DNA of 61,083 bases from a virus. Taxonomy: Duplodnaviria; Caudoviricetes. Below are positions 1,528 to 30,900 of the stretch, in pieces (positions within the stretch are counted from its first letter, which is position 1; the number at the start of each line of letters is the position of its first letter). The stretch lies in the IMG/VR virus record IMGVR_UViG_3300013286_000014, positions 1 through 61,083 of that record, one strand, 5' to 3'. The notes beneath the pieces are model-generated. The model had not been told where the DNA came from, searched no databases, and was given only the letters and a program-made list of their open reading frames with translations. The position numbers were made by a program, and so were the translations under genes.

Positions 1528-1535
1528 TATTTATA
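1528..1535 (-). promoter_or_regulatory. T4-type late promoter TATAAATA
   Basis: Exact T4 late consensus overlapping the portal stop codon, 4 nt upstream of the ATG at 1523. Confidence 0.6.
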
Positions 1536-3267
1536 CTGGAGGAGCGGCAGCGGGTGCTCCCCCGCCTGGAGCGGCAGCGCCTGGAGTTTGAGCGGCTCCA
1601 TTTTCTCCGGTATCCATGTCTTCTGGGGCGTCCATATCGCCGGCAGCACCCAAGTCGCCTTCAATTCCGCTGGCACTCAATCCTGCACTGCGCAATTCTC
1701 CAGCGGCATCTGTGTGCGTTGGCTCGCCTTTGCCATTCTCTTCTGCCCAATAGCGTTCGTTTTCTGACAGCTCTTCTTGAGTCAAACCCAAGAAACGCTT
1801 CATGGCAAAGCGTTTTGACACAAACGGCACTGCTTGAATGGTGTTAAATGTGTTGATACGTTCAGCATCAATAGCACTTTGCTTGCTTGATGCAAAGTTA
1901 AGTGGTGGATTAAACTGCAATTCAAACAGATTGCTGTCAATGTTCACACCTTTGCTGTGCATGTACATCTTAAATTCATCATCAAACACTGCTGTAATCA
2001 ATGCCTGCAAGCGTTCGCAGTACTTGTTAAAGCGCAGTTCCTGAATATATGCTGTGCCCACACGTCCATCGTTGAAATTACTTTGACTATCGTCCGCACC
2101 AGTGGGCAAATAGCTTGACGGAATACGCAAACCACGAAACAGCTTGTTGGTAAAGTACTTCAAGTCGTCAATTTCGCCAATGTTCTTGCCGCCTTCCAGC
2201 ATGGTAACATCTGATCCTTTGCCGTCTGCTGTTTTAGGAAAGAAATAATCTTCATTTATACTCAGTGGATTGTATGCTGAATCAATTACGTTCTGTCCGC
2301 CGCCTGTTTGACTAGGTATACGGCGTTGGTGAATTTCGTTCTTAACACGTTCCACAAATGCCATAGCCAAGTGACTAGGCATATTACCTACGTCGATATG
2401 GAATACTCTGCGTTCCGGCGCACGTTGTATACGATAAATTAATATAGCATCTTCCAGCAATTCTTTTTGTTTGTACACTTTGAATATGTTTTCCAACAAA
2501 CTGTTACCAAATGGATAGTTGTTGTCCAACCCTTCGCTTAGGCTCAAATGTATAACATGCTTGGCATCAATGGCATTTTCTTTAAATTGTATACCAAATC
2601 TGCTGCCACTTGAACCAGCTCCAGTACTGCCACGCTGTGCGCTAGTACCAGTACTACCACTTGCTGGTACAGGTCCTCCGCCCGGCGACTTAGAACTCAT
2701 GTTGGCTGTAATTTGTGTAGCTACCAAATGTTCAAAATTGGGTGCTAGGTCTTTAACAATGTATTGTTCTGGCTTTTTGCCTTCGCTTTCGTTAACAATG
2801 ACCTTGATCAAGTTACTGGTATCGATCCAATTCCACTTTTGATTCTCGGGATCACGTATGAAAAATGCGTCACCGTACTTGAATACATTACGTACAATAC
2901 GAAAAATACGTGTATCAAACTTTTGTAGCTTGTTCCACTGTTGTAAATACTCGCTTAACACACGAACTTCCACATTGGTGGCCTTGTGTCGCCATTTGAT
3001 TGCAAATGGACTGCTGTTGTCTTTTAATTTTTGTGTGCAAAACTCTGCCAAAATATCCAAGGCCGCATTGACTTCTGGATCGCTGTCCATGGTTTCATAC
3101 TGTTGGTAGCGTTCAATACGGTTTGGACTACCAGAATACACATCTGGCAAGTAACTGCTGTAGTTGCTACGTGCTGGGCCCGGACGGTTGCCGCTATTAA
3201 TTCCATTAATAGGGCTCAATGATTCGCCGTTGACGGGAACAGGTGTGAAGTATTTTTTCCAACTCAT
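1531..3267 (-). CDS. gp20: Portal vertex protein (T4 gp20-like)
   Basis: Motifs 'LLEDAILIYRIQRAPERRVFHIDVGNMP', 'EDYFFP', 'GEIDDLKYF...LRIP.S.L' and 'ELRF.K...RLQ' are characteristic of T4-like portals. Confidence 0.95.
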   Translation of the reverse strand: MSWKKYFTPVPVNGESLSPINGINSGNRPGPARSNYSSYLPDVYSGSPNRIERYQQYETMDSDPEVNAALDILAEFCTQKLKDNSSPFAIKWRHKATNVEVRVLSEYLQQWNKLQKFDTRIFRIVRNVFKYGDAFFIRDPENQKWNWIDTSNLIKVIVNESEGKKPEQYIVKDLAPNFEHLVATQITANMSSKSPGGGPVPASGSTGTSAQRGSTGAGSSGSRFGIQFKENAIDAKHVIHLSLSEGLDNNYPFGNSLLENIFKVYKQKELLEDAILIYRIQRAPERRVFHIDVGNMPSHLAMAFVERVKNEIHQRRIPSQTGGGQNVIDSAYNPLSINEDYFFPKTADGKGSDVTMLEGGKNIGEIDDLKYFTNKLFRGLRIPSSYLPTGADDSQSNFNDGRVGTAYIQELRFNKYCERLQALITAVFDDEFKMYMHSKGVNIDSNLFELQFNPPLNFASSKQSAIDAERINTFNTIQAVPFVSKRFAMKRFLGLTQEELSENERYWAEENGKGEPTHTDAAGELRSAGLSASGIEGDLGAAGDMDAPEDMDTGENGAAQTPGAAAPGGGAPAAAPPV

Positions 3268-5518: not shown

Positions 5519-6340
5519 ATGGCCAATAATCCCTTAGAGCAGTTTTTTAGACAACCAAAGATATTCATCAATTTGCCCAGTCAAGGTGCATATCATGAGG
5601 AAGGAGTAATGCAAGGTGATACAGTAAACATGCCAGTATACAGTATGACAGCAATGGATGAAATCATTGCCAAAACTCCAGATGCCATGTTCAGTGGAGA
5701 AAGCACAGTGCGCATGATACAAAGCTGTTGCCCCAATGTTAAAAATGCCTGGGGTCTCAGCATGATAGATACAGACTTGTTGTTTGCCGCAATACGTATT
5801 GCCACTTACGGTAACTTTTTATCAGTGACTCACGTGTGTCCAGGTTGCAAAACTGATAATCAATATGACCTAGATCTCAGTCGTGTGGTGGATCATCTTA
5901 CTGGTTGCAAATATAACAATACTATTGTATTGAATAAAATAACCATACGCACACAACCTGTAACATATAAGGTAAGCACGGACATTGCCGTGAAACAGTA
6001 TCAAATGAACAAACGATTGGTTCAGTTGGAAACCATGGAAGACTCAGACGAAAAACAAAAATTGATCAACGAGCTGTTTGTGGATATTGGCAAAATACAA
6101 ACTGAATTTTTTATTGCCAATGTGGAAAGCATCGATACTGGTAGTCAAGTTGTTACTGAGCGACCGTTTATTATAGAGTTTATGAACAATTGCGACAAGA
6201 CCATTTACGATGCTATTAAAAAACAAGTGGAATTAAATCAAGACACTTGGAAATTGCCGTCATACGAAGTCAAATGTACTGAATGCAGTAAAGATAACAA
6301 CGTTACTATTACTCTAGATCAATCAAATTTTTTCGTCTAA
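5519..6340 (+). CDS. Baseplate hub assembly protein (T4 gp26-like), probable tail assembly chaperone
   Basis: 'LPSQG..Y', 'D.D.LF.AIRIATYG', CPGC and CTEC zinc pairs and terminal 'SNFF' resemble gp26-like proteins; AGGAG RBS. Confidence 0.75.
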   Translation: MANNPLEQFFRQPKIFINLPSQGAYHEEGVMQGDTVNMPVYSMTAMDEIIAKTPDAMFSGESTVRMIQSCCPNVKNAWGLSMIDTDLLFAAIRIATYGNFLSVTHVCPGCKTDNQYDLDLSRVVDHLTGCKYNNTIVLNKITIRTQPVTYKVSTDIAVKQYQMNKRLVQLETMEDSDEKQKLINELFVDIGKIQTEFFIANVESIDTGSQVVTERPFIIEFMNNCDKTIYDAIKKQVELNQDTWKLPSYEVKCTECSKDNNVTITLDQSNFFV

Positions 6341-6567
6341 GCCTGATCTTCCTGTCCGCTGAAGAAATTCAAAAGGAACTGATTAGGCTAGAAGAAGAAG
6401 TTAAAGAATTCAAACAAGAGCTATTTAGAATTAGTTGGTACATGCGAGGCGGAGTAACAGTAAACGATTTGTTACAAATCTACGGTTATGAAGATAGAAT
6501 AGCCATGTATAATATCATTAAAGAAAATATAGAAACTACCAAAGAGTCTGGACTGCCGTTACTTTAA
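6331..6567 (+). CDS. -1 frame extension of the gp26-like gene (gp51-like region), probably reached by frameshift
   Basis: Frame open from the slippery site to TAA 6565-6567: FRLSLIFLSAEEIQKELIRLEEEVKEFKQELFRISWYMRGGVTVNDLLQIYGYEDRIAMYNIIKENIETTKESGLPLL. First ATG only at 6442. Confidence 0.65.
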   Translation, partial: FRLSLIFLSAEEIQKELIRLEEEVKEFKQELFRISWYMRGGVTVNDLLQIYGYEDRIAMYNIIKENIETTKESGLPLL

Positions 6568-8067
6568 CGAACCATCCGGATTTATTTCTCGTCCTTGATA
6601 GTCATATTGTCTTTTTACAGCAGGTGTTTGTGCAACTGCTGGTTCTGATGGTGCCGGCACTTCAGCTTTAGCACCTTGATTTGTTGCAGTTCCCGGTGGC
6701 ACTGGTTCGTCTGTCTTTTCAGATTCTGCATCTTTCGCTTTGGATGCTTCAGCTTCTTTAGCTATGGCGGCATTTATATTTTTAACAATTTTGTCGTATC
6801 GTTCAAAACTGTCTTTGTATTTTGGCATATTGGCAACTTCACTCTCTTGCATCCAATTTGCCAATTCTGTTGCACCATCAGACATTAGTAAAGGATTATG
6901 CATTACCAAAGTGAGAATCACCTGGCTGGGGTTTGGATCCTTGGCTATTTCTAATGCTATCAAATTGAATGCGGCCGGAGATGCAATTTTTGTTAGTTGT
7001 GTCACGCCGGGAATAAATGTTCCTAAAACTCTAAAAATTCCATATCCAGTGGCAGATACTAGAAGGCTACCAGAAAGTATTTCTAACATTTTGGCCACAG
7101 CTTTTTGCATTTGTAGACGGTTGTATAACACAAACCACTCTTCTATATTTTCAGGCTCTCGTCCTTGGTATGACATGCCTGTTAACTGCCCAGCATCTTT
7201 TAACTGTTGAAATGCATTGTTGTCAGTGTCTCCAAGATATTCTCTTGCACTGTCCATGGTTTTTTTATACGTGCTAATTGGACCAGATAAAATTTTACCT
7301 AGGATAGCAAGATTTAAAAGAGCGTAAACACCACCAACCAATGCAATAACTCCTTTGACTGTGCCCCACACAGTAAATCTGTTGCCGGATTTCACTTTGG
7401 CTGCTTTGGCTTCTTTGGCTTCTGCGGCTTTCTCGGCAACTTTTTTAGGATTTGTAGTACCAAATTGAGATGCAATCCTATCCAAGTACTTGGCTTCTGC
7501 CAGCTGTAATATATCTTTTCTAGCATCAGGAAACTGAGCAAATAAATCGTTTGGTACAGCTGGTGTACCTGGAGTAGCTGGAGTGCCCGGGACACTTTTC
7601 ATCGCGGGCTTGCCGTCTGCGCCAATAATGGGTTGGCCATTGTTGCCCAACATGGGTTCTTGAGTTCGACCTTTTGCTGGCGTACCAGGAGTGGCGGCCT
7701 GTTTGGGCGGCACAATTGCTTCAACGGGTCTAGGCTCAGTGAATTTGTTTATTCTAGCATCATACAGTTCGTCTGCATATTTGTCGGCGGCTGAACGTAG
7801 TTTGGTAAAGGCCTCCCGATCAAGTCTCGCACCTATGCCCAATATTCCGCCTTTCTCATACTTGTCTGCAATCTGATACGCTACTAACTTTTCTGCCGCG
7901 TTATCCTTGCCTGCTTTTTTTTCCAAGAAAGTGGCCATATCTAGACCAAACAATTGACGCAATTTATATTGCGCTTTCAACAAAATGCCAGGGCCTTCGT
8001 CGCCCAGAGTCTGGCCCAGATAACCTTCATTTAGTCGTGATTCCGAAATTATTTCATGTACTTTCAT
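6559..8067 (-). CDS. Hypothetical late protein, candidate head-internal/ejected protein with hydrophobic segments
   Basis: 502 aa; N-terminus MKVHEIISE; ATPGTPA repeats; hydrophobic stretch VIALVGGVYALLNLAILGKIL; GATAAATA upstream. Confidence 0.75.
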   Translation of the reverse strand: MKVHEIISESRLNEGYLGQTLGDEGPGILLKAQYKLRQLFGLDMATFLEKKAGKDNAAEKLVAYQIADKYEKGGILGIGARLDREAFTKLRSAADKYADELYDARINKFTEPRPVEAIVPPKQAATPGTPAKGRTQEPMLGNNGQPIIGADGKPAMKSVPGTPATPGTPAVPNDLFAQFPDARKDILQLAEAKYLDRIASQFGTTNPKKVAEKAAEAKEAKAAKVKSGNRFTVWGTVKGVIALVGGVYALLNLAILGKILSGPISTYKKTMDSAREYLGDTDNNAFQQLKDAGQLTGMSYQGREPENIEEWFVLYNRLQMQKAVAKMLEILSGSLLVSATGYGIFRVLGTFIPGVTQLTKIASPAAFNLIALEIAKDPNPSQVILTLVMHNPLLMSDGATELANWMQESEVANMPKYKDSFERYDKIVKNINAAIAKEAEASKAKDAESEKTDEPVPPGTATNQGAKAEVPAPSEPAVAQTPAVKRQYDYQGREINPDGSLK

Positions 8068-8085
8068 AGTTTGTTCTCAGTATGA

Positions 8086-8093
8086 TATTTATC
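8086..8093 (-). promoter_or_regulatory. Late promoter GATAAATA
   Basis: 18 nt upstream of the ATG at 8067; same octamer as at 5501, 41447, 45639, 57583 and 58351. Confidence 0.6.
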
Positions 8094-8103
8094 TAGTGCT
8101 TCA

Positions 8104-8562
8104 AGAAGAACTTGCGTTCTTCTGTTCATCGCTATCGCTCGAACTGCTAGTTTTCTTTTAATATGTATGATCAAACGCGAAGCGTTAAGATATTATCTAG
8201 ATCGTTCAGTCACACTTTGCCCTGGCGGGCAAAGTTGTTTTTGGACATTATCTGAGTCGAACAATATCACTTAGCGTTAGCACTAAAACGTAGGCGGTCA
8301 TCCGGTACCTACTCATGCTGTCTTTATATGACGGCGGGCTTGCAACATACGCTAACATGCTGTAAACCGTGGGGCCACTACCCCTCTTTTAGCCTGGAAA
8401 ATTTTTGCTGTTGACTAAACGGATTCAGTAGGCACGTTCCGTCAAGGTCCTGTAAAGGATACTAATCAACATCTCTGTCACCAAGCAGAACTACCTTGCC
8501 GTCACACATCAGAACGGATTCAGGGCACACTATCAACGCCTGTGCGGGCTTATTTGGTGATT
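8104..8562 (-). ncRNA. Candidate large structured non-coding RNA (unclassified)
   Basis: No ORF of 60 aa or more; more than 10 hand-paired helices forming three multibranch domains, a possible pseudoknot and GNNA tetraloops; imperfect pairs are G-U on the minus strand. Boundaries approximate. Confidence 0.55.
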
Positions 8563-8574
8563 AAAGGGCCTGGT

Positions 8575-9003
8575 TTATTGATTTTTGAGTATGTGTGAAC
8601 CGTGTACACGCACGGAGATTTGACCATTATAATAGTCTTTTGACTCCAGCACACGACGGCTGAACTGTTCACGAGCCTCTATATATGACGTTTCAGCTTT
8701 GCTGTTGCAATAGAAAAGTATGTCTCGCCGAAAGTTTTCTTGACCTAACTGCGCGATGTCCTTGAGCAATTCATCCGACGAACCATAATAAGTACGCCAG
8801 TCCGAATCAATTTTACCGCGGATTTTCTTTTTTTTCTTGGTGCCGTTTTTTAATTTTACTGTTTTGTAAGTGGTTTTAGAAAATTTTGCTAGTTTTTTGC
8901 CTATGTACATACGCCCTGTGAGTGTGTTTGTTATAAGATAAACAAACCCAACACACTCTTCGGGCAACGTTTCTATAAGTTGATTTTCGTAGTACCAAGA
9001 CAT
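8575..9003 (-). CDS. GIY-YIG endonuclease (T4 EndoII/Seg-like, single domain)
   Basis: GFVYLITN...MYIGKK (GIY-YIG motif), YYGSS, conserved Glu in SYIEARE, YYN; basic insertion KLKNGTKKKKKIRGK. Confidence 0.85.
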   Translation of the reverse strand: MSWYYENQLIETLPEECVGFVYLITNTLTGRMYIGKKLAKFSKTTYKTVKLKNGTKKKKKIRGKIDSDWRTYYGSSDELLKDIAQLGQENFRRDILFYCNSKAETSYIEAREQFSRRVLESKDYYNGQISVRVHGSHILKNQ

Positions 9004-9015
9004 AATATATGTATA

Positions 9016-9285
9016 TTATGCATCCTGGTCACCACCTGCCTCTTGGTTTGCCTTGCGTTGCGCCTTGTCCTGATCCAGCCAAACACGATACTGTTGTACA
9101 TGTTCTCTGCGTTCACGGGCTATGATTCTAATCTGCGCCAACCAGTAGCGCATGTTCTCCCCTGCTCGTCTAGTACCACGAGCCTGCCATTTTTGATTTT
9201 CTTTGAAGTACTCTTTGAAAGCTGTCATGAGACGCTCGTGCGATTCTTCGTTTTGAAACGGAACTGGATCAACGTGCTTACTCAT
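9016..9285 (-). CDS. Small basic helical protein, possibly histone H1-like (Hc1-type) DNA-binding
   Basis: Start reassigned to ATG 9285, overlapping the gp46 stop. 'ENQKWQARGTRRAGENMR..LAQIRIIARERR..VQ' resembles phage Hc1-like proteins (weak). Confidence 0.55.
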   Translation of the reverse strand: MSKHVDPVPFQNEESHERLMTAFKEYFKENQKWQARGTRRAGENMRYWLAQIRIIARERREHVQQYRVWLDQDKAQRKANQEAGGDQDA

Positions 9286-11056
9286 TGATCTCCAAATCGT
9301 TGGCATAGTAAGTAAAGCCATTTTCTTTGATAACTTTGAGCACATTGTTCACCCGACCAATCAATTCGTCCTTGTGCGATATTAAGAAAATGTTCTTTTT
9401 ACGTTCACGGCTCATCTTTTTAAGCACAGCCAGAGCGCCTTCTACACCAGCCGCATCCAAGCCGTTGTCGATAAGTTCGTCTACAAACAGCAGATTAATC
9501 TGTTGATACAAACTTTCCCACACGTCTCTAAAACTCCATGACAAGCCCAGGATAAGTCTGTTGCGTTCGCCTCTGCTGAGATTATCAAAATCCAAGTCTT
9601 GCCCCAGTTGTGTAATTTCAACTGTGAGGTCATTCTTAAACATCACAGTGTGTGGCAAGCCCATTTTGTCAAGATAATAAGTCAAGCGGTTGTTCAAATA
9701 TGCTAGGTTTTGATCAATGATCTTTTTACGGATAAACGAATCCTTGCTGGTCAATAGTTTGAGTAAAAACTCTTGATGGTCCTTGAGTGTGTTAAGTGTG
9801 TTAACTGTGTCCCATGTAATTTCTTGAATGGCAGTATCAGTTAGTTCGTCGATCTGTTCTTGGTACGGATCAGTTTCTCCATCCTTGATAGTCAGCTGTG
9901 TTTCCAAACTTTTTAGATTGTTTTGGTGTTTGAGTGCCTGCTCAACACTATCGTAATAGGTGTTGGGTCTAGCTGCCACTTCACCAATGGCTGTGATTTC
10001 TTTAGTAATTCTAGCAGTGTCAGCGGCCACTTTGTCAAAGTATTTTTGTGCTTCGGCCAAGTGTGCAGTAGCTTCAGCTGACATTTCCTCATGCTTGTGG
10101 TCATGCAAATCTTGGTCGCAAGCATGGCATTTTTTATCTTGCAGTTTAGCAAGCTCGCTAGCATACTTTTTTACGCTTCGCTCCGCTTGCGCTATCGCGC
10201 TATCTAAGGTTGCCCGCTCCTTGTTCAGACTTTTTAATTTGGCTGCTTTTTCTTCGTATGCTTTGAGCTCTGCGTGTTTGGCCAATTCAGCATCAATGTC
10301 CACACTTTCCAGTTCAATAATAGCACGGGCAATTTTTTCTACTTCTTGATTGTGCTGATTATTCCAAGCACTTTGTCTTGTCAACAGGCCGTCAATACTG
10401 ACCTGTATCTTTTCGTTGCTTTTGCGTGAGGCTTCTATGTTGGCAGTTTCTTGTGTAACTTGATCCTTGGTCAGTTTGATCATTTCTTTCAAGCTCTCGG
10501 CTTTTTCACTTAGAATAGTGATACCCAGCAGTTGCTCAATGATCACACGTTGGTCATTGGCCCGCATACTTAAAAACGGTTCTGTATAAGTGTTGAGTGC
10601 AACCACGTGTTTGAACATGTCGTGACTCATACCCATCAAGTCATCCAAGTCCTTCTGGGTTTCACGCATGTCACCTTGTGCGTCATCTGTTTCAGCAGTT
10701 TCTTGTTCTTGGTCGTTCACAAAAAACTTTAGTACATTGGGTTTGCGTCCACGTTCAATTCTATAGTCCAAGCCATCTTTTTCAAAGCCCAAGGTAACCA
10801 ACATGCCCTTGTTGTTGATCTTGTTAATGAGATTGTCTTTTTTGATGTTGGTTAACGCATTGCCAAATAAAGCATAACTGAGTGCATTCACGATGGTAGT
10901 TTTACCTGTACCATTACGGCTTCCGTTGTCGTCACCGCCTTGATCCAAGTTCTCACCCAGCACCAGTGTTAAGTTTTGCTGTGCAAAATTCACTGCTTGA
11001 GTCTGGTTACCCACACTCATAAAGTTTTTAACTGTTAATTCTTTTATCTTGATCAT
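9278..11056 (-). CDS. gp46: Recombination endonuclease ATPase subunit (gp46/SbcC/Rad50)
   Basis: KNFMSVG, Walker A NGTGKTT, coiled coil with CHAC zinc hook, signature LSRGE, Walker B LLFVDE. Confidence 0.93.
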   Translation of the reverse strand: MIKIKELTVKNFMSVGNQTQAVNFAQQNLTLVLGENLDQGGDDNGSRNGTGKTTIVNALSYALFGNALTNIKKDNLINKINNKGMLVTLGFEKDGLDYRIERGRKPNVLKFFVNDQEQETAETDDAQGDMRETQKDLDDLMGMSHDMFKHVVALNTYTEPFLSMRANDQRVIIEQLLGITILSEKAESLKEMIKLTKDQVTQETANIEASRKSNEKIQVSIDGLLTRQSAWNNQHNQEVEKIARAIIELESVDIDAELAKHAELKAYEEKAAKLKSLNKERATLDSAIAQAERSVKKYASELAKLQDKKCHACDQDLHDHKHEEMSAEATAHLAEAQKYFDKVAADTARITKEITAIGEVAARPNTYYDSVEQALKHQNNLKSLETQLTIKDGETDPYQEQIDELTDTAIQEITWDTVNTLNTLKDHQEFLLKLLTSKDSFIRKKIIDQNLAYLNNRLTYYLDKMGLPHTVMFKNDLTVEITQLGQDLDFDNLSRGERNRLILGLSWSFRDVWESLYQQINLLFVDELIDNGLDAAGVEGALAVLKKMSRERKKNIFLISHKDELIGRVNNVLKVIKENGFTYYANDLEINE

Positions 11057-12066
11057 AGGCTATTATAAATTGACAACAAGGTATTTTTGTCGTAAGTATC
11101 ACTTTCAATGTTGATAATCTGACTGGACACAATCTGATCTACACTTTCAAATGCCTGAATATCAATATTGGTATTGATTTCAATATCTTTCTTTTCTGCA
11201 ATCAGTGTGAGTTCACGAATGTCGTAATCTGATACAAACTTCTCTTTAATAAAACTGGCTTCTTCGTAGGTAATATCAATATCCAATGTGACACGCAAAT
11301 GCTGTTTAGTTTTAATGATAGTGTCTGCACCGTCGATCAGTTCACTAAGTTTCAGTGTACGGAATGTGGGTTGATTATCCCACGTATGATATTGGGGAAC
11401 ACCGTCCCAATCTAAAATCATCATGCCACGCTCGTCATCCCAAGTGTCTGCATAGTTGTGCGGAAATGCATTGCCGATATAGACCACATTGCCCTGTTGT
11501 TGACGTTTGTGGAAATGTCCAGAGAACACATAGTCCGGGCCACGCAAATCCGCCGCTTGTAATTCTCCATGATCTGGCATTTGCACCATGGCATTCATGT
11601 AGAATAAGGGCAATTCAAAGTGCCCAAAGATGTATTTGCTCTTGGAGCCTTTTAAACTTTTCCATTCGTCACCTACAAGCCACGGGCACATAGTAACGTT
11701 ACCAATACTAGTAGGCTCGTGAACAACAGTAATCCCAGGAATATACTTGCCAAATTCAACGGAATGTATATCCCGCTTGTCTTTGTAATATAGATCATGA
11801 TTGCCAGGGAAAAAGTAAAATTGATCAAAGCTCTGACCGAGCTTTTCCAAGGCCCTAAGGCTATAGTCCATAGTAGTGATATTAAGACTATTACGATTGT
11901 GATGCCAATCCCCCATAAATATTCCAGTATCACACCCTTCCTCCTTGGCTTTGGCAATATACCAGTCTACAAAATCTTCACAATCTTGATTGTGTACACT
12001 GCTGTTAGATTTTAATCCAAAATGGATATCTGTAAAACAAGCTACTTTTTTAAACAAATTACTCAC
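11053..12066 (-). CDS. gp47: Recombination endonuclease nuclease subunit (gp47/SbcD/Mre11)
   Basis: Metallophosphoesterase motifs DIHFG, GD, GNHD, GH, SGHFH; adjacent to gp46. Confidence 0.93.
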   Translation of the reverse strand: MSNLFKKVACFTDIHFGLKSNSSVHNQDCEDFVDWYIAKAKEEGCDTGIFMGDWHHNRNSLNITTMDYSLRALEKLGQSFDQFYFFPGNHDLYYKDKRDIHSVEFGKYIPGITVVHEPTSIGNVTMCPWLVGDEWKSLKGSKSKYIFGHFELPLFYMNAMVQMPDHGELQAADLRGPDYVFSGHFHKRQQQGNVVYIGNAFPHNYADTWDDERGMMILDWDGVPQYHTWDNQPTFRTLKLSELIDGADTIIKTKQHLRVTLDIDITYEEASFIKEKFVSDYDIRELTLIAEKKDIEINTNIDIQAFESVDQIVSSQIINIESDTYDKNTLLSIYNSL

Positions 12067-21400: not shown

Positions 21401-21934
21401 AGTAGTAGCGAACTTAACAGTTTACTGGCACCTAATCTAAATTTAATCAAATCTATCTCAGATGAAATTGTTTATCATCCAGTAAGTTATTTGTTACTGT
21501 TTGGACCAAAAGCTCCTGATAATTTACAAGCTACATTTAATGTTGTAAAAAATCCTACGAGTACCGCTAGTGATAATGATATTGTTGCAAGAATTATCGC
21601 AGCATTCAATAGATTTTTTACACTAGACAACTGGAACTTTGGCGATACGTTTTATTTTACCGAGCTATCAACTTATGTAATGAATCAACTTACGCCCGAC
21701 ATTACCAACTTTGTCATTGTACCCAAGCAAGGTAATTTGTATTTTGGTGCATTGTTTGAAATAAAATGTCCGAGTAATCAGATACTGATCAGCTGTGTTA
21801 CAGGAGACAGTATTAAAGTAGTTGCAGGGTTAACCAGCGACAATTCAAGAACAGTTACAGGCAGTGGGTTATCTTCTGTAGTAACAAGCCAAAATATAAC
21901 TAGTGCAACCTTTGGAGTAACTAATGGCAAATAA
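18443..21934 (+). CDS. gp6: Baseplate wedge subunit gp6-like (1163 aa)
   Basis: 'YDFE.LR..MI.Y....PE.FND..ESSE', 'ENFL.LA.RR.SV..L....GY', 'F.DG.FG..P', 'AP..Y.TQNR.IT..DY'. Confidence 0.85.
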   Translation: MSSTDRQNNLLVSEDWQKIYQSFKNADFQSYDFENLRRTMIDYIRTNFPEDFNDYIESSEYLALIDLIAFVGQSIAFRVDLNARENFLELAERRDSVLRLSRMIGYNASRNVPASGLLKFNTIQTTENVLDSNGINLAGQVITWNDPSNTSWYDQFIKIMNAALPTTQQFGNPIDQAKIYNISTSQYRFNARNTDIPVYNFTKSVAGRSMNFEITSTTFANKNVIYEEAPKVGNHLAFIYKDDGYGAGSTNTGFFLNFTQGNLNQGAFSVTQPSSNQTIDINTQNINNNDVWLYSLNQSTGLEDTLWTQVPALTGNNIIYNSLNKNIKTIYSVITRAGDAISLGFSDGTFGDLPLGNFRSYYRISNGLSYAISPSDILNVAISVPYTSSKGQAETLTVTLSLVNNVSNASGTESNMNIKANAPQTYYTQNRMITGEDYSISPLSITQKVAKVKSINRTSSGISRYFDLTDPTGKYSSTNLFADDGVVYQDLYTSSTNFSYMTKTDVEGVVYNTIFPILNDPNLRNFYYANYINYISESLAIQWVNVTTDSNSSTGYVGDSSLVPKKLSSYTSTDLKYFTNGALVKFLAPTGRYFDTTRQNSLMPLPVTGMLPFGGVDYLWAQVATIVGDGLGDGENNSGKTTINGGLFGVVTLNEIIPTTAIVSQIIPQFSSTIGSTVVTTMIDLIFNNKPFGLRYDAGTQSWQIVFETNLNTTSGFSLGYQGDTTNTQQDSSWLLLLTTNNEYYTVNTRLLRYIFESDKAVSFYFDTSLKVYDTVSSTTILDSLKILSINPQPDNTIPFTTDLNWQIISAFTGQDGYVDPSKIVVAFADTLNNGIVDNPQLFLDIVAPDTSPLKKYVVQQKYLISQGQEDYRYVSNATGLVKILTTQGSVGSLSQYTDGQYFYFVDKAVVKKYDAATSTLNASLDYKVYVGRDNLKFQYIHNADYNSRIDPGASNIMDVYVLTVDYDTQFRQWLSGANVKEPMAPSSSELNSLLAPNLNLIKSISDEIVYHPVSYLLLFGPKAPDNLQATFNVVKNPTSTASDNDIVARIIAAFNRFFTLDNWNFGDTFYFTELSTYVMNQLTPDITNFVIVPKQGNLYFGALFEIKCPSNQILISCVTGDSIKVVAGLTSDNSRTVTGSGLSSVVTSQNITSATFGVTNGK

Positions 21935-24900
21935 AAACAATCCATTAGGCAACACGAATCTTACAGTAAATTTTCTTCCTAAATTTTATCAGTCAGATGC
22001 TAATAAGAAATTTTTACAAGCCACATTAGATCAGTTATACCAACCAGGTAGCATTAAAAAAATCAATGGGTTTGTAGGCCGCGAAAATGCCAAATCTTCT
22101 ACCGGTACAGATATCTATCTTGAAGCGAGCGATCGAGTGCGACAAGATTATCAGCTGGAGCCAGCCATAACTATTACAGATAATATTGGCAACCAAACAT
22201 TTTTCAAAGACTATATTGATTATATTAATCAAATTAAAACATTTGGCGGTAATACAGCCAATCATGCCAGACTAAACAAGCAAGAATTTTATAGCTGGGA
22301 TCCACATATTGATTGGGACAAGTTTGTTAATTTTCAAAATTACTACTGGATTCCATACGGCCCGGACACTATTAGATTGCAAGGACAACAAAAAGCAATC
22401 AACAGTACTTACACTGTTTCAATTGAAAGAGAATTAAGCAACAACGAATACTTGTTTACCCCCAACGGGTTTACTCGCAATCCCGTATTGAAATTATATC
22501 GCGGCCAAACATACACATTTGAAATTAACAGCCCCGGCAATCCGTTCAGCATCAAGACTGCACGTACTCCAGGGCAATCTGACAGATATCTAGTTGATAC
22601 TATTGATAACTATGGAGTTGAAGTTGGAACCATGACATTCAGTGTTCCATTAGATGCTCCTACATTGTTGTTTTATCAAAGCGAATCAGACCTTCAGTTG
22701 GGAGGAGCAATTCAAGTATTGAGCATTACGGCAGACACTTATATTGATGTTGAAAAAGAGTTGTTGGGTAAAAAACATTATACATTATCCAATGGTACAC
22801 AACTCAGCAATGGAATGAAATTGGCATTTTTAGGAAATGTAACTCCTACTGAATATGCTTCTGGTGAATTTTATGTTGAAGGTGTTGGTATCGCAATCAA
22901 ATTAATTTCTACAAGTAGATTAGAAATTATTAATCCTTACACTGAAGAAAAAACAATACCGTTTGACAGTGATAAATTTGATACTCAGCCGTTCAGCGAT
23001 GCCACAGGCTACGCCGGGCAATCGGATTACATAGTAATTGACAGGGGCAGTAACGATGCCAACAATTGGAGCCGATACAATCGATGGTTTCATAAAGATG
23101 TTGTTGCCGCAAGTTCTTTATATAATGGCAATCCAGTCAACTTAGATCAGACCGCAAGAGCCATTAGACCCATTATAGAATTTAATGCAGATTTAAAACT
23201 TGCAAATTTTGGCACTATGGCCATTGCCGATGTTGATATCCTCGACGATTACACGACAGATGCATTTAGTACAATTGAGGGATCATTTGCATACAGCGTT
23301 GACGGCGTTTCTTTAGCAGACGGACAGCGAGTTATTTTTACCGCTGACCCTGATACATTGGTTAAAAATAAAGTGTTTAAGGTTACATTTGTCAATGTAT
23401 TACATCTTAATAACGGTAGTAGACAAATCCACTTGGAAGAAATTTCGTCACCATCACTCAATCAAGTGGCACTGGTTAAATTTGGAACTAAACATCAAGG
23501 TAATGCATTTTGGTATAACGGTACAACATGGGCCCGCGGCCAATTAAAAACTAAAGTAAATCAAGCACCGTTATTTGACGTAGTAGACGAAAAGGGTATA
23601 AGTTATGCTGATACCACTGTTTATAACGGATCAACATTTGTAGGAACAACTTTATTTTCTTATAAACTCGGATCAGGCACTACTGACAGCGCACTGGGAT
23701 TTCCGTTAAGTTACAGAAATATCAGCAACATTGGCGATATTGTTTTTAATTTTACGCTGGCAACTGACACATTCCAATACAAGCAAGGGACTGCTCTGTT
23801 AACACAAGCAATTAATGTAGGGTATCTTGTGGGGCAAACATTTGCTGGAAAATTAACTTATAAAAACGGCTGGCAGCTTTGCACAGCTCCGAATGTACAA
23901 GCCGCTATTAGAATTTATAAAAATTCTGGAATCACGAATTATTTTAATATAGATATTTTTGATGACATTACCAATCTAAACGACCTAGTGGTTAGAATTT
24001 ACATAAACGGACATAGACTGGATCCAATGGCGTGGACATTGATTGATGCACCTGCTCACAAACAAGTACAATTGAGAACAGATATTGCACTAAGTGATGT
24101 GTTAACCATCAGAGCATTTGCGGCACAGCCAATTAACAGTATTGGTTATTACGAAATACCCGTTAACTTGCAAAACAATCCATTAAACAATGCGATGGGA
24201 GATTTTACACTGGGTGAAGTTTCGGACCATGTGAATTCAATAGTTGATAATTTAGATACCATCTTTGTAGGCTCATTTCCAGGCAGCGGCAACCTACGAG
24301 ATCTGGGTAATGTAACGCAATACGGTACAAAATTTGTACAGCACAGCGGCCCAATGAGTCTTGCAATCTATCATATTACTAGCGAATCTAACAATGTTAT
24401 TCGCAGTATTGAACAAGCTCGGGACGACTACAATAATTTTAAAAGAAATTTTATTAAAATTGCCAGTAATTTGGGAGTAGACGGTGACACTGTTACCATA
24501 ACAAATCTGGTGTTGCAAAAAATCAATAAAGACAAGCCAAAAACAAGTCCTTACTACTTTAGTGACATGGTTCCGTATGGCGCATGTGTAGTAACGGATC
24601 TCAATGTTGTTGATTACAGGATTAAACAATATCCGTTAACCAAGCCGTTTGTTTTAACAACCTTGAGTAATGACGCTGTGGGTGTATATTTAAACAGTGT
24701 GCAATTAATTTACGAACAAGACTACAGATTACTTGATACGGGATTTGTTGTAATTGACAGTTCGGTCAAGATGAACACCGGCGATGTAATTACCACAAGA
24801 GAATATGACAGCACCGATGGTTGTTTTGTACCAGCGACTCCGACCAAAATGGGCATATGGCCAAAATTTGCTCCAAAAATTTATACAGACACTTCGCTAG

Positions 24901-27900
24901 TGACACCGCGTGTTATGATACAAGGCCATGATGGCAGTCAAGTCTTGGCGTATGGCGATTATCGCGACGATTTGATTTTGGAATTAGAAAAGAGAATTTT
25001 TAATAACATTAAAATTCAATACGACACTGCAATTTTTGATGTCACTGATGTAATTCCGGGATATAACAGAAAAACAGATTACAATCTGTCTGAATTTAAT
25101 GAAGTATTGGCTCCTAATTTTTACAAATGGACTGCATTAGCAGGTAGAGATTTTACAAAACCATTGGGTACATTTTCTGTAAATAATACCTTTACATATA
25201 ACTATTCTGATACTGTTGGGCCCGACGGCAAACCAGTTCCGGGGTATTGGAGAGGAATCTATCGTTGGTTGTTGGATACTGATCGACCTAATTTATGCCC
25301 GTGGGAAATGTTAGGGTTTAGTATAGAGCCCAAGTGGTGGGCCACGGTGTACGGTGTTGGCCCATACACTGGCGACAATTTTCCAATGTGGCAAGATATT
25401 AGCGAAGGTATGGTTCGTGAACCGGGAGTTCCTGCGGTTAAATTAACCAAATATGTCAAACCATTTTTAATGAATCATATTCCGGTTAACAGCGACGGAA
25501 CATTATTAAGCCCGATTGATTCTGGTTTAGTTTCTGGACCAACTGTTCTCACAATGGATGGCGGGTTTGTATTTGGAGATGTAAATCCAGTTGAAGCTGC
25601 CTGGCGCCGTAGTAGCCATTATCCATTCAGTGTGCTTATATCTGCTACACTTTTGAATCCTGCAAACACGTTTGGCCTGTTGTTAGATAGGGCCAACATC
25701 AAACGTAACCGTGCAGGACAACTAATTTATGCAAACACTAATCTACGGGTACGCCCAACCGATGTTGTATTACCCAGCATTTATTCAAGCGCAACTCGTG
25801 TACAAACTGCGGGATTGGTTAACTATATTGTAGATCATATTTTAAATTTTGTGTTTAGTAATAATGTTAGAAGTTATAATCAGTATGCTACTGACTTGGA
25901 CACTTTGGCAAGTCAGATCAGTTATCGAGTTGGAGCATTTACTAGCAAAGAACAATTTAATTTATTATTAGATAGTAAAACACCGTTAAGTACAGGTAGT
26001 GTTTTTATACCTCAAGAAAATTATCATGTTAATATTAACACTTCTAGTCCTATCAAGAAAATAACTTACAGCGGAGTTATTATCACTAAGTTGCACTCGG
26101 GGTACGAAGTTAAAGGTTATAGTACCACACAACCTTATTTTAAATATTATCCTTACTTACAAACAGGCCAAAGAATTAATGTTGGCGGCATTAGTGAAAG
26201 TTATGCAACTTGGACACCAGGACAGCAATATGTTGCTAATTCAGTTTTATTATATAAAGGACAATACTATCGAACGTTGTCTTCTACGACATCAAGCGCA
26301 ACATTTGACCCAACGGCATTTAGCCGCTTAGGCGAATTGCCAGTTGTAGGCGGCGCCAATGCTGTTTTGAGAAAACTATGGGATAGAAATAATCCAGTGG
26401 TAGTTCCGTACGGCACTGAATTTACAAAAATTCAGGATGTGGTTGATTTTTTACAAGGCTACGGCGAATGGTTGACTGATCGGGGATTTGTTTTTGATGA
26501 TTTTAATAACAATTTAAATGCCGTTTCTAATTGGGAAAACAGTGCTAGAGAATTTCTATTCTGGACTACACAAAACTGGAATTCTGGCGCAGATAAATGG
26601 GCAGATTGGAATCCAGCTGAGCCAGTTACCTACGGAACTATTGTAAAATACAATGGAGATTATTATAGTGCATTGTACAATTTAGCCGCTACTGACGTGT
26701 TTGATCCGATCAAATATACTAAATTAGAAGGATTAAGCAACATTGGCAGCAGTGTTATTAGTCTAAGCCCAAGTGCAAATAAATTAACATTTAAAACTGA
26801 CTTATCTGTAGTAGACAATATTAGTAATCAGTTTTACGAATATGAAATATTCAAAGTTGACGGAACACCATTGGCTCCATTATTCTTGGATAGCTATAGA
26901 GAAAATAATACTGTAAGTTACAGTCCCCGTACAACTGATGGAATCTATGGCGCTAGTTTTTATCTAATACAAAACGAACATGTTATTACAATAGATAATA
27001 CCACAATTTTCAATGATGTTGTGTATAATCCAGAAAGCGGTTATAGACAAGAACGTGTTAAAGTAGCTGGGCACGTTAGTATCGACTGGTACGGTGGCCT
27101 AGATGTTCCAGGTTTCATATTTGATCAAGCGAATGTCAAACAATGGCAGATATGGCAAGATTATTCTCTAGGCGACATTGTAAACAATCAAGGTTTTTAT
27201 TACAGTGCATTATCCGCTCTATCTGGAACAGAAACATTTAATCCACATACCTGGGTGCAACTAACAAATAAACCAACACCCAAATTAATTCCTAATTGGA
27301 CTTATAAGGCCGGCCAGTTTACTGATTTCTACAATCTTGACAGCGATAACTTTGATGTTGCACAGCAAACAATGGCACATCATTTAATTGGGTACCAGAA
27401 ACGTCAATATCTCAATAATATTATTCAAGACAACGTGAGTGAATTTAAATTCTTCCAAGGCATGATTCGTGAAAAAGGTACACAAAATAGTCTCAATAAA
27501 TTATTTGATGTATTAAGTTCTGACAGTAAAGCAAGTCTTAAATTTTATGAAGAGTGGGCAGTACGTGCTGGGCAGTACGGCGCCAGTAGAGCTTTTGAAA
27601 ATATTGAATTTGTGCTGGACGAAGGACAGTTTAAATTAAATCCTCAAGGCTTCCAGTTGGTAACTGCACCGGATGTAACTCTCAACGATACTTTTATTAT
27701 ACAACAAAAATCTACTGATGTATATTTAAAACCTTTGGGCTATAATTCAAAACCTTGGCCGTTATTGACAAATTATAAACCTTTCTTGCGTAGTGCAGGC
27801 TATGTTAATTCAACTGAAGTATCTATAAGTCTCGGATACCTGCCAGAAATTGCTGCCTTAGATAATGCCACAGTCAACGAAGGAGCCTATATATGGGTGG

Positions 27901-30900
27901 CCTTCGAAGGACCAAGTTGGAATTTGTACAGATATACAGATATTCACATGTCTGTGACAAATGTTACCTATAATGCGTCTGCAAAAACTTTAACAATTAC
28001 AGCAGAAAATCTAACTGGATTTGTATCAGGGTCGTGGATTGGACTTGCACAAGTAGAAAAATTAAAAGGTTTTTATCAAATAATTAGTGTTGAATTAAAC
28101 TCATTTACAGTTGCGGCAAATATTACTGGATTTCCGAGCCCATTCAAACAAAGCAATGAACTGGTAGTGTATGCATTGATTAGTCAACGAACCAGTAGTA
28201 TCGACACATTGGATTCTGTACTTACAACAAAACTTTCACCGGGCGAACTAATATGGACAGACGACAGCGGTAACGGCAAATGGGCCAGCTGGATGTTTAA
28301 TCCTATTTACACCATATCAGACGTAAACAATTCAGCTCCGCAGAATCAATTACGATTTGGCAATACCATTGCTGTAAACAACAAAGGCACACTGGCCGCT
28401 GTTGGTTCTAGTTTTGGAGAATTAATAACATACGACAAAGTAGGAACAGTCACTCCTTGGGTCCAGCGCCAAGTCATAGCTTCTCCATTCATTGCAACAA
28501 ATGTTGTTGCATTGACTACCGGTAATACTGCGCTTAACAGCACCACGGTGATTATGTCTAGTGCAAACCCTTCCATGATAGGTGGATTTATCGATGGCCC
28601 CGGCGTGCCTTATGACACACTGGTGGTATCAGCGGTTAACGGAGTTAGTATCACAATCAGCCAAAAAGCAAATGCAACAACCACAGCTTCAACTTATACA
28701 ATTATAACAAATCCAAACCCTGCTACAGCAATAGCAACTTCAATAGCATTTTCGGCAGACGGTACCTGGATGGCTAGTGGTAGTCCGTTAGCCGGTTATG
28801 CAGTAACAGATTATTTAGGCGCATGGGATAACACTGTTGTGTACGGTCCAAATCTTATTGTGTCAACTGGGTCTGGCACTAGTACAACATATTGGCAAGC
28901 ATTAAGTAATGTTCCAGCAAATAAACCACCAGCAAGTAACCTAGCTTATTGGACTCCAATCTATTATTTGCCAGTTGACTCGTATGGAACTTGGTCAATC
29001 AACGATTCGTATCTTGAAAACACACTAGTTGTTTATAAATCAAAAGTGTACAAGAATGTTGTTACTGCAACAGCTTCTGGTCTGCCTTCAATTTATGGTC
29101 AAACAACGGTTAATGTATTAAGTACAAATGGTACAACTTATATTTTAACCGCTGACACAACAGCGGGACTTGCACCAAATTATCAAATTATTTTTACAGG
29201 CAATGTATTCGGTGGAATATTATCTGGTGGTTTATACTATGTGTCTACGGTTCTTAGTAGCACCACATTCACAATTACAGCATTGCAGTACAGCACATCT
29301 CTAACACCAGTTACAACTGCGTTTGGATCAATGCAAGCTACTCAGCAACCGCAGCCTGCGCCCGGCGGAAATAATCAGTGGGCAGAACAAAGCACTCAAG
29401 CTGGCCCAGCCGGGCAAGGTGTAATTAGTTTATACAAGAAAGATCCTAATAATATTTACGGGTTAGTTGACACCATTGTTAGTCCGTTCCCAGCTGCCAA
29501 CGAAAACTTTGGTAGCAAAATTGTATTTGGAAACGATACAGCATATGTGTCGGCTCCAGGTTACAATGGCGTTGGTCGAGTTTATAAATTAAAATATGCA
29601 ACAACTATCCAAGCACAAAGTGCATATAATCCAGTCGGCAGTACCAATGCCACTGTAGTAGTTACCAGCACCGCCGGAGTCCGTGTAGGAATGTATGTAA
29701 TTAATCCAGCATTTACTAGCGACCAAACAGTGGCGCAAGTATTAGATTCTCGCACGGTGATATTAAGCGGCAGTCCAAATAGTATTCCAAGCGGAATTAT
29801 AAAATTTGCAATTGTTGGTTGGGGATACGATTTTACAGAAATATATACAGGCACACAACCCGGCGCCGCTTTTGGGAATTCTATTAGCCTGAGTCAGGAT
29901 AATCTCACACTTGCAATTGGGGCAGACACTGGCACAGTAAACGGTGTACTCAGCATTTATAAAAATACTGGTACAGGATTTAATCCAGCACTGCCTTTAC
30001 AATCCATATCAGGCACTACCAAAAACTTTGGTATTAGTACCAGTGTGTCTGACAATGGAACATATATTGCAGTATCAGACGACAGTGCCACAGTTGGCGG
30101 CATAATACAACGTGGCGGCGTTACTGTTTATAAGTTTACTGCCGGCACGTATACACCTTACCAAACACTGACTCCTTATCAGCCTGAAATCAATGGACAT
30201 TTTGGTAATAAACTATCGTTTATGAATGACCATGAAACTCTAGTAGTTTATAGTCAATATGGTGACACAATTATTACAACTACATTTGACAATAAGACAA
30301 CTACATTTGATAAAAATAGTACAGACTTTGCATTTACACAAACTAACAGTGGACGTGTTGATGTTTATGATATGTATGCTACTAAGTGGGTGTTTAGTGA
30401 AAGTCTAACTAAATCAAACCCTGTTAAAACTGCCGGAAATTTTATTAGAAATAATGTTTATCAAATTTTAACTCTTGGTACTACAGATTTCACCGCAATT
30501 GGTGCAAGCACTAACGCAATTGGTGTTACCTTTACAGCAACCAGTGACGGGTACGGTACAGGTACTGCGGCCTTAGTCACTAACGAAACTTTGATCGCCG
30601 ACGGATACGGAGTTGGATTTGCTGTAGGCTCTAATCACATCTTAATTGGCGCACCAGAATCAACTGACCAAGGATTTAATTCAGGAAAAGTTTATGATTA
30701 CGGCAAGCCGCTCAATGCGTATACTTGGACTATTGATCATTCGGAAGTTGATAAACCTGATGTTACAAAAATTAAACAGGCATTCTTGTATAATAGAGTA
30801 ACTGGAGAATTAATTACCCATTTAGATGTTATTGATATTGCTCAGGGAAAAATTCCAGGACCAGCTGACGAAGAAATAATGTACAAGTCGTTTTACGACC

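Follow-up and report, generated by a model that had tools for sequence, protein, structure and literature searches.

A two-pseudoknot RNA behind a SegE-like gene of T4-like lake phages contains the Polynucleobacter-1 motif as its 5′ domain

What does a tightly packed phage sequence keep in its one long interval that is not covered by open reading frames (ORFs)? The question is raised by the gap at positions 8068–8574 in a stretch of 61,083 nucleotides (nt) of virus DNA (Duplodnaviria; Caudoviricetes; IMG/VR record IMGVR_UViG_3300013286_000014, positions 1 to 61,083), which was analysed at its full length and is called the window hereafter. When ORFs of at least 90 amino acids (aa) are considered over the whole window, this 507-nt gap is the longest uncovered stretch, the runners-up measuring ~270 nt. 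This bears out the long ORF-free gap described in an earlier note, which was made from the letters alone and read the gap as encoding, on the minus strand, a large multi-domain RNA fold that includes a pseudoknot. The Rfam match and the covariation presented below agree with that reading: the gap holds a conserved minus-strand RNA of ~460–480 nt (8560–8104) with two covarying pseudoknots, which, in a group of uncultured lake phages that are T4-like and probably jumbo, has a fixed place behind a SegE-like gene. That a structured RNA exists here at all we regard as practically certain.

The 5′ part of the RNA belongs to a catalogued family, so that the window RNA is not new as such. The comparison with Rfam covariance models that the earlier note had proposed gave a match to RF01718 (Polynucleobacter-1) at 8550–8408 on the minus strand (66.2 bits; gathering cut-off, 37; Rfam 15). 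The match spans model positions 1–141 of 141 and is untruncated (E-value, 7.5e-12 over the whole window and 1.8e-13 locally), non-standard pairs are marked in its hairpin 2 only, and it is the sole Rfam 15 match above the gathering score in the whole window. It covers the two regions that the note had called domains 1 and 2, in which GCACA/UGUGC, CCGUU/GACGG, the closing stem of domain 2, UCCU/AGGA, and GACGGA/UCCGUU are all consensus helices of the Rfam family, whereas the remaining ~330 nt of the RNA match no Rfam 15 family. Between 7900 and 9400, at E-values up to 10, just one further match was obtained (CrcZ, 12.6 bits) and was judged to be due to chance. Over the whole window, the Rfam 15 models of GOLLD, ROOL, HEARO, OLE, and other large RNAs gave no match, nor did those of RNase P, group I/II introns, and known ribozymes, and ARAGORN detected no tRNA or tmRNA gene; the absence of tRNA, tmRNA, RNase P, and group I/II intron signatures, reported earlier by inspection, is thus confirmed. 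The description of the RNA as possibly undescribed holds for a part of it. The 5′ 143 nt are RF01718, whereas the 3′ two thirds, the full-length architecture with both pseudoknots, the phage context, and the concerted boxes described below are absent from Rfam 15 and from the literature searched, in which the name and accession of Polynucleobacter-1 led to no paper besides Weinberg et al. 2010 (PMC2864571). As far as the table of that source goes, the motif is probably an RNA and probably cis-regulatory ('y'), is undecided as a switch, and is listed for Burkholderiales and for fresh water/estuary. Both the habitat and the taxon recur here: lake-water RNA and DNA runs hold parts of the RNA, and Burkholderiaceae genomes carry the family.

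Relatives were collected by scanning a viral collection with an exact 16-mer located at a helix junction (8337–8322), which yielded at least 119 stretches; together with loci obtained earlier, 126 of 127 were homologous to the gap by blastn. Full-length loci numbered 106 (73 distinct), a chance match (L125) was kept as a negative control, and the working set comprises at least 72 distinct full-length phage copies falling into 49 clusters at 90% identity, all counts being among the matches listed. Because the loci were fetched with the 16-mer, the anchor is invariant by construction and its invariance is uninformative; more divergent members are missing from the set. RF01718 exceeded the cut-off in all 48 representative records and in none (0/1) for the control L125. 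A protein-guided search with the 502-aa protein encoded downstream of the RNA yielded few loci (one or two viral and four from metagenomes), one of which (L006) shows compensatory changes in most helices and in pseudoknot 1. Among cultured phages, the 507-nt gap had no blastn match, and its 166-nt core gave just three chance matches of 22–26 nt at E-values up to 10. Homologues of the SegE-like protein occur in 500 cultured records (Kyanoviridae and relatives), all with less than 60% identity, the closest being that of Methylophilales phage Melnitz (46% identity), in which the gap behind the gene is only 148 nt. These cultured homologues, mostly from cyanophages, are often labelled 'NAD synthetase', which looks like an annotation error.

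The fold of the 3′ module was examined in an alignment of 49 representatives of the region 8407–8062, built with MAFFT and fitted to no structure. RNAalifold predicted 49 pairs, 31 of them with a compensatory change, and the column pairs with the highest mutual information were Watson–Crick pairs within predicted helices. The tested structure consists of the helices P-a to P-h, pseudoknot 1, and a long-range helix (64 pairs). In it, 95.1% of the cells are paired (82.7 ± 0.4% in shuffles), 40 of the 64 pairs have changed on both sides (23.6 in shuffles), and the covariation score is 0.390 (0.148 in shuffles), a value attained by 0 of 500 shuffles; the score falls to 0.04–0.08 when the partners are slid by 1–3 columns. 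The covariation among homologues that the earlier note had named as a check is therefore present. Its pseudoknot, drawn between 8355–8350 and 8276–8271, is confirmed and lengthened to 7 base pairs (bp) (8355–8349 with 8277–8271), with 99.4% of cells paired and five of the seven pairs changed on both sides. The GGGG/CCCC stem, the long hairpin (8368–8337), and the 8-bp hairpin at the 3′ end, all seen earlier, are kept in relatives with the compensatory changes listed in Table 1, and GUAGG/CCUAC (one of four pairs compensatory) and the 9-bp hairpin at 8214–8235 are likewise present and kept. Read in the plus direction, the latter hairpin precedes a T run and counts among the terminator-like sites flagged; it could halt transcripts that enter the RNA gene in antisense. 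The domain 3 closure put forward earlier (8393–8387 with 8288–8282) was rejected as unconserved: 195 of 343 cells pair, A–A oppositions occur in 39–41 of the 49 sequences at two positions, and its 3′ letters belong to P-c, which covaries throughout. The long-range helix (8332–8328 with 8213–8209) is 100% paired and shows no covariation; one of its strands lies in the anchor, so that it cannot covary in this set, and we consider it probable. In two loci (L015 and L090), 16 nt are inserted after P-d and before the 3′ strand of P-c (alignment columns 121–136), possibly as an extra small hairpin.

The second pseudoknot involves the 5′ domain. The pairing UCACCAA/UUGGUGA (8560–8554 with 8484–8478), which had been taken to close domain 1, is present and covarying and forms a pseudoknot; its 3′ strand is the loop of hairpin 3 (8489–8474), a hairpin unlisted in the earlier note. 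Its four core pairs vary among the 49 representatives as AU16/UA14/GC7/CG5, CG39/UA4, GC23/AU22, and CG24/GC22. Read by eye, ten distinct complementary versions occur, one of them in a bacterial copy, which has a different complementary strand pair at the places of pseudoknot 2. The first paired base of the RNA lies 14 nt past the SegE stop codon, and since it is this leader segment that forms pseudoknot 2, the RNA starts at most 14 nt past the stop codon. An AGGC box is found twice on the minus strand, in the leader just past the SegE stop codon (8571–8568) and at the start of the 3′ module (8395–8392), and is kept in most relatives.

The RNA is on the minus strand, as indicated by the Rfam match, the fold z-scores, and the many G–U intermediates in covarying pairs. 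The comparison of folding energy with shuffled controls, also proposed in the earlier note, gave z-scores of −2.64 for the minus strand and −1.60 for the plus strand, a result in the direction expected but only mildly better than the controls and modest alone. The suggestion that the RNA may be a ribozyme, self-cleaving or other, found no support in Rfam. Invariant unpaired stretches at the helix junctions and the two pseudoknots would suit such a molecule; part of this invariance, however, stems from fetching with the 16-mer, no catalytic motif was recognised, and no ribozyme family of Rfam 15 matched at E-values up to 10, so that we consider a ribozyme very unlikely.

The 3′ module contains two direct repeats, box 1 and box 2, which are 55 bp apart and each followed by a hairpin. 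At three variable positions the letters of the two boxes are identical in 72 of 72 copies: 8258/8203 (A in 46, G in 24, U in 2), 8253/8198 (A in 52, G in 20), and 8252/8197 (G in 66, C in 6). Six box haplotypes exist, with no intermediate among the 72 copies. On a tree built without the box columns, the letters require at least 12, 9, and 1 changes, and the independent pairs moved together in 9 of 9 and 8 of 8 cases (p = 0.004 and 0.008). The identity of the boxes is not a by-product of descent or linkage; linkage alone is insufficient because positions 5 nt apart show all four combinations, whereas those 55 nt apart always go together. Mutual information revealed no further column of the RNA that follows the box letters. 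Two candidate readers of the boxes were rejected. A third strand within the RNA that pairs with both box loops was found neither by mutual information nor when sought sequence by sequence (at least six contiguous pairs), the best candidate occurring in 27 of 70 copies. In the SegE-like protein no residue tracks the letters, the best mutual information being 0.35 against an entropy of 1.08.

The strand 8268–8261, immediately preceding box 1, pairs with the 3′ half of either box (91.5% and 90.7% of cells paired), and an A-to-G change in this strand is matched by a U-to-C change in both boxes. Such pairing would suit a pair of folds that exclude each other; it does not account for the three loop positions of the boxes. 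A general phage promoter was ruled out as the identity of the box, the long form of its motif having just 3 sites in the window. An element acting at the DNA level (origin, operator pair, or promoter cluster), for which the resemblance of the boxes to −10 elements and their 55-bp spacing could be adduced, is disfavoured to the point of being improbable in the extreme, as is a small protein gene: the compensatory changes pass via G–U intermediates that pair on the minus-strand RNA only, no sigma-70-like site was flagged in the gap, the box motif is as rare elsewhere in the window as just stated, and the longest ATG-initiated ORF within the RNA is unconserved, with a median length of 32 aa.

Boxes that change in concert and have no partner inside the monomer might instead serve as inter-subunit contacts of a homo-oligomer. 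ROOL, GOLLD, and OLE are reported to form RNA-only multimers (PMC12286853), and the size, the ornate fold, and the phage and mobile-element setting of the present RNA resemble those of RNAs of that kind. Against self-assembly stand the lack of any sequence or model match to ROOL, GOLLD, or OLE and the expectation that inter-subunit contacts would normally give complementary letters, not identical ones; we consider it distinctly unlikely.

Bacterial versions of the RNA were surveyed in two samples of 151 genomes each, one Burkholderiaceae-wide and the other from one genus of that family (genome sizes, 1.1–2.8 Mb). RF01718 scored above the cut-off in 1 of 151 genomes family-wide and in 17 of 151 genomes of the genus, four of which have two matches each. 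Twelve bacterial loci were fetched, 11 of them of an island type and the twelfth (L259) a phage-type copy. P-g and P-h are recognisable in the bacterial copies (nhmmer E-value, 1.5e-6): five of the 11 loci have a significant nhmmer match to these hairpins ~260–320 nt past the 5′ domain, giving a total length of ~460–500 nt, and with the 49-row alignment the bacterial copies were matched by nhmmer at the 3′ hairpins only. Read by eye, the consensus of ten bacterial copies contains counterparts of the long hairpin, the junction, the inter-box hairpin, and both boxes, which hold another shared block, and at the place of pseudoknot 1 a loop-to-downstream pairing made of different letters. The one locus checked for them (L251) contains neither a GIY-YIG gene nor the 16-mer.

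The genes around these bacterial copies differ from those of the phages. No same-strand ORF abuts the RNA in the 11 island-type loci, and the next one, a small recombinase, starts more than 300 nt past the RNA end. A divergent ORF of 145–146 aa adjoins the RNA in nine of the 11 loci and one of 161 aa in a tenth; it is DUF6641 (PF20346) by Pfam in L251, the locus checked. Four loci have a downstream ORF of 188–211 aa, assigned by Pfam as a tyrosine recombinase in the one checked. Also near the bacterial RNA are a second, larger integrase-like gene and a gene for a C-5 cytosine methylase, which point to an integrative island as its setting. A tblastn search of the phage window revealed no homologue of DUF6641 or of the recombinase. 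When bacterial genomes (596 Gb) were scanned with the 16-mer, the matches listed (120 loci) included one true copy, L233, on a short contig of a 0.9-Mb bin, the remaining ones being chance matches as expected for 596 Gb. Two metagenome bins have phage-type copies on short contigs, namely L259 (G314:C80) and L249/L250 (G050). The sample of the genus that furnished the island copies includes the bin G314, which hints weakly at the phage host.

Since an enzyme that cuts or joins DNA adjoins the RNA in both settings (the GIY-YIG nuclease in phages and the tyrosine recombinase in bacterial islands), a guide-like RNA of mobile DNA may be envisaged, the boxes reading one short sequence in two targets for the neighbouring enzyme; reading one core sequence would need boxes that always share their variable letters, as these do. 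We hold this to be highly improbable. In phages the locus keeps its synteny and is inherited vertically instead of moving, cultured relatives that are without the RNA commonly encode SegE homologues, no SegE residue follows the box letters, the nuclease and the recombinase are not related, and no target was found.

Table 1. Coordinates of the RNA features and neighbouring genes in the window
Feature	Position	Strand	Remarks
Pseudoknot 2, 5′ strand	8554–8560	minus	pairs with 8478–8484; upstream of first position of Rfam model
5′ domain, RF01718 member	8408–8550	minus	three hairpins and a closed two-hairpin subdomain
P-a hairpin, GGGG/CCCC	8371–8384	minus	4/4 pairs compensatory
P-b long hairpin	8337–8368	minus	11/12 pairs compensatory; 99.1% of cells paired
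Pseudoknot 1, 5′ strand (P-b loop)	8349–8355	minus	
Junction 16-mer	8322–8337	minus	exact in all fetched loci, by construction
P-c	8315–8319 with 8279–8283	minus	5/5 pairs compensatory; encloses P-d
P-d	8290–8312	minus	mostly invariant, loop region invariant; outer pair AU24/UA15
Pseudoknot 1, 3′ strand	8271–8277	minus	pairs with 8349–8355
Shared strand	8261–8268	minus	followed by box 1
Box 1	8244–8261	minus	identity-covarying letters 8258, 8253, 8252
P-e hairpin between boxes	8215–8234	minus	kept in 49/49; 1/8 pairs compensatory; alignment slips in 15 rows
Box 2, direct repeat of box 1	8189–8206	minus	identity-covarying letters 8203, 8198, 8197
P-f small hairpin	8174–8186	minus	closing pair CG24/UA21
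P-g, 3′ terminal hairpin	8124–8144	minus	
P-h, 3′ terminal hairpin	8104–8123	minus	7/7 pairs compensatory
A/T box between RNA and next ORF	8084–8093	minus	similar box in 65/72 copies, 91/627 control windows
Portal gp20	1531–3267		
Baseplate hub protein	5519–6340		
502-aa ORF downstream of RNA	6559–8067	minus	ATG at 8067
SegE-like GIY-YIG ORF, 142 aa	8575–9003	minus	PF19835, E-value 7e-33; PHROG 447; stop codon 8577–8575
gp46, SbcC-like	9278–11056	minus	
gp47, SbcD-like	11053–12066	minus	

The window is a 61-kb fragment of a larger genome, the CheckV completeness of the virus record being 16%. Based on relatives of 165 and 175 kb, which are rated 45% and 49% complete, the full genomes are probably near 360 kb. 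The gene content is T4-like by Pfam and PHROG matches, and the largest ORF of the window by far encodes 5364 aa (21924–38018, plus strand). The order on the minus strand is gp47, gp46, a 109-aa ORF, the SegE-like ORF, the 507-nt gap, and the 502-aa ORF, which has no Pfam or PHROG match. In 104 of the 105 loci with at least 700 nt of upstream sequence, the SegE-like ORF ends just upstream of the RNA on the same strand, and the single exception is the chance match L125. The SegE-like gene, always in the same place and 55–97% identical across the clade, behaves as a fixed and syntenic gene would, unlike a roaming homing endonuclease.

The downstream side is less constant. The 502-aa family was found by tblastn in 8 of 100 loci and with a hidden Markov model in 7 of 59 downstream ORFs, and in 13 of 72 copies no ORF on the same strand follows the RNA; at the level of sequence, the RNA is therefore not bound to one downstream protein family. 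Between two phages, the downstream gene is 33% identical, whereas their gp46 is 89% identical and gp46, the small ORF, and SegE range over 85–89%. Together with the N-terminal pattern and the single cluster described below, this low identity indicates that the downstream neighbour is a fast-evolving family. Since tail and baseplate genes adjoin, its product may be a structural or host-contact protein. An A/T box that we take to resemble a T4 late promoter lies between the RNA and the next ORF (Table 1). In the assemblies of three lake RNA libraries, contigs cross the junction of the SegE-like ORF and the RNA (8268–8640, 8245–8640, and 8474–8643), which fits, if weakly, co-transcription with the SegE-like gene.

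Does the RNA act on its own, or does it lead into the next gene? We favour a stand-alone RNA over a leader of that gene, a preference held tentatively and at somewhat less than an even chance. In this proposal, the 5′ domain (Polynucleobacter-1) would be locked to the leader segment by pseudoknot 2, and the RNA would be transcribed as the tail of an early or middle operon of gp47, gp46, the small ORF, and SegE. With the two terminal hairpins as its end, the transcript would stop short of a late-type promoter that belongs to the next gene, and the RNA would act in its own right rather than as the leader of the downstream gene. The two equivalent single-stranded boxes may bind two copies of one partner; alternatively, they may take turns in pairing with the one shared strand, giving a two-state fold. 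The action of the RNA would be independent of the SegE-like protein, a view based on the bacterial versions that lack a GIY-YIG gene (checked in L251).

Several observations weigh against a stand-alone RNA. In 59 of 72 copies the RNA is followed, at a distance of up to about 100 nt, by the start of a same-strand ORF (245–543 aa); 48 of these 59 ORFs share an N-terminal pattern and 40 fall into one single-linkage cluster. The terminal hairpin of the window (8123–8104) is not among the four terminator-like sites flagged in the window scan, and a clear U run (4–5 residues) follows it in some relatives only, so that read-through into the next gene is possible. The expression data are contigs, mute on strand, ends, and level, and may stem from carried-over DNA. 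Inside the RNA no partner for the boxes turned up, and the exact 16-mer leaves divergent members out of the comparison and renders the invariance of the anchor meaningless as evidence.

The main rival is accordingly a cis-regulatory leader or read-through switch, in which the RNA would sense a signal and its two alternative pairings would decide on the continuation of transcription or translation into the fast-evolving gene. The recurrent same-strand ORF with its shared N-terminal pattern and the unclear terminator speak for it, the strand 8268–8261 pairs with either box equally well, as would be the case in a two-state switch, and the 2010 table, within the bounds of its entry, rates a cis-regulatory role of the motif as probable and leaves 'switch' undecided (PMC2864571). 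The 13 copies devoid of such an ORF argue against a leader, as does the late-promoter-like box (the likeness being our assumption), which in 65 of 72 copies separates the RNA from the ORF, since a late mRNA starting there would exclude the RNA. In bacteria, moreover, the distance of more than 300 nt to the next same-strand ORF and the divergent orientation of the most frequent neighbour do not fit a leader, and ~480 nt with two pseudoknots far exceeds known leaders. On balance a leader seems to us rather unlikely, though a contender to be taken seriously.

We compared the RNA with known systems. With respect to RF01718, the segment 8550–8408 is a full-length member that shares habitat and taxon with the family as tabulated in 2010 (Burkholderiales, fresh water/estuary). 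The family model of 141 positions, however, corresponds to just the 5′ third of a ~480-nt RNA; the leader pseudoknot starts outside the model, and the family includes neither the 3′ module nor pseudoknot 1 nor the concerted boxes. The location of the RNA downstream of a phage GIY-YIG gene speaks against the label 'cis-regulatory', which that table entry gives tentatively. GOLLD, ROOL, HEARO, and OLE are RNAs of several hundred nt with many covarying helices and pseudoknots, found in phages or mobile elements, whose function is unknown or was recently found. The present RNA is like them in length, in its many covarying helices and pseudoknots, and in its phage and mobile-element setting, but differs in matching none of their Rfam models, in fold and host range, and in its neighbours, a GIY-YIG gene here and tRNAs or IscB-type genes there. 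Tandem-site RNAs, such as protein-sponge RNAs and tandem aptamers, bind one partner twice. The boxes are similar to these in presenting two copies of one candidate recognition element in one RNA, which evolve in concert; they differ in numbering only two and in being built into a rigid fold of many helices, with distinct hairpins between them, and we claim no family membership.

A more far-reaching possibility, which we think unlikely, is that the RNA represents a new large ornate class, of which Polynucleobacter-1 is only the 5′ domain, common to T4-like lake phages of ~360 kb and to integrative islands of their likely hosts. Its boxes would then embody a recognition principle undescribed for structured RNAs, in which either two sites are kept identical by reading one partner sequence, or parallel strands are held by like-with-like base pairs.

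Altogether, a motif that has been in Rfam since 2010 turns out to be one domain of a ~480-nt, two-pseudoknot RNA, placing it in the size class of ROOL, GOLLD, OLE, and HEARO, each of which, to our knowledge, led to unexpected biology. With at least 72 distinct phage sequences and the bacterial versions, there is enough material for a full family model, for structural work, and for the choice of constructs, and the size suits cryo-electron microscopy. The strictly concerted boxes pose a concrete, testable puzzle. That jumbo T4-like phages and the islands of a single genus of freshwater bacteria both have the RNA is a hint at the host of these uncultured phages and at an exchange of the RNA between phage and host elements.

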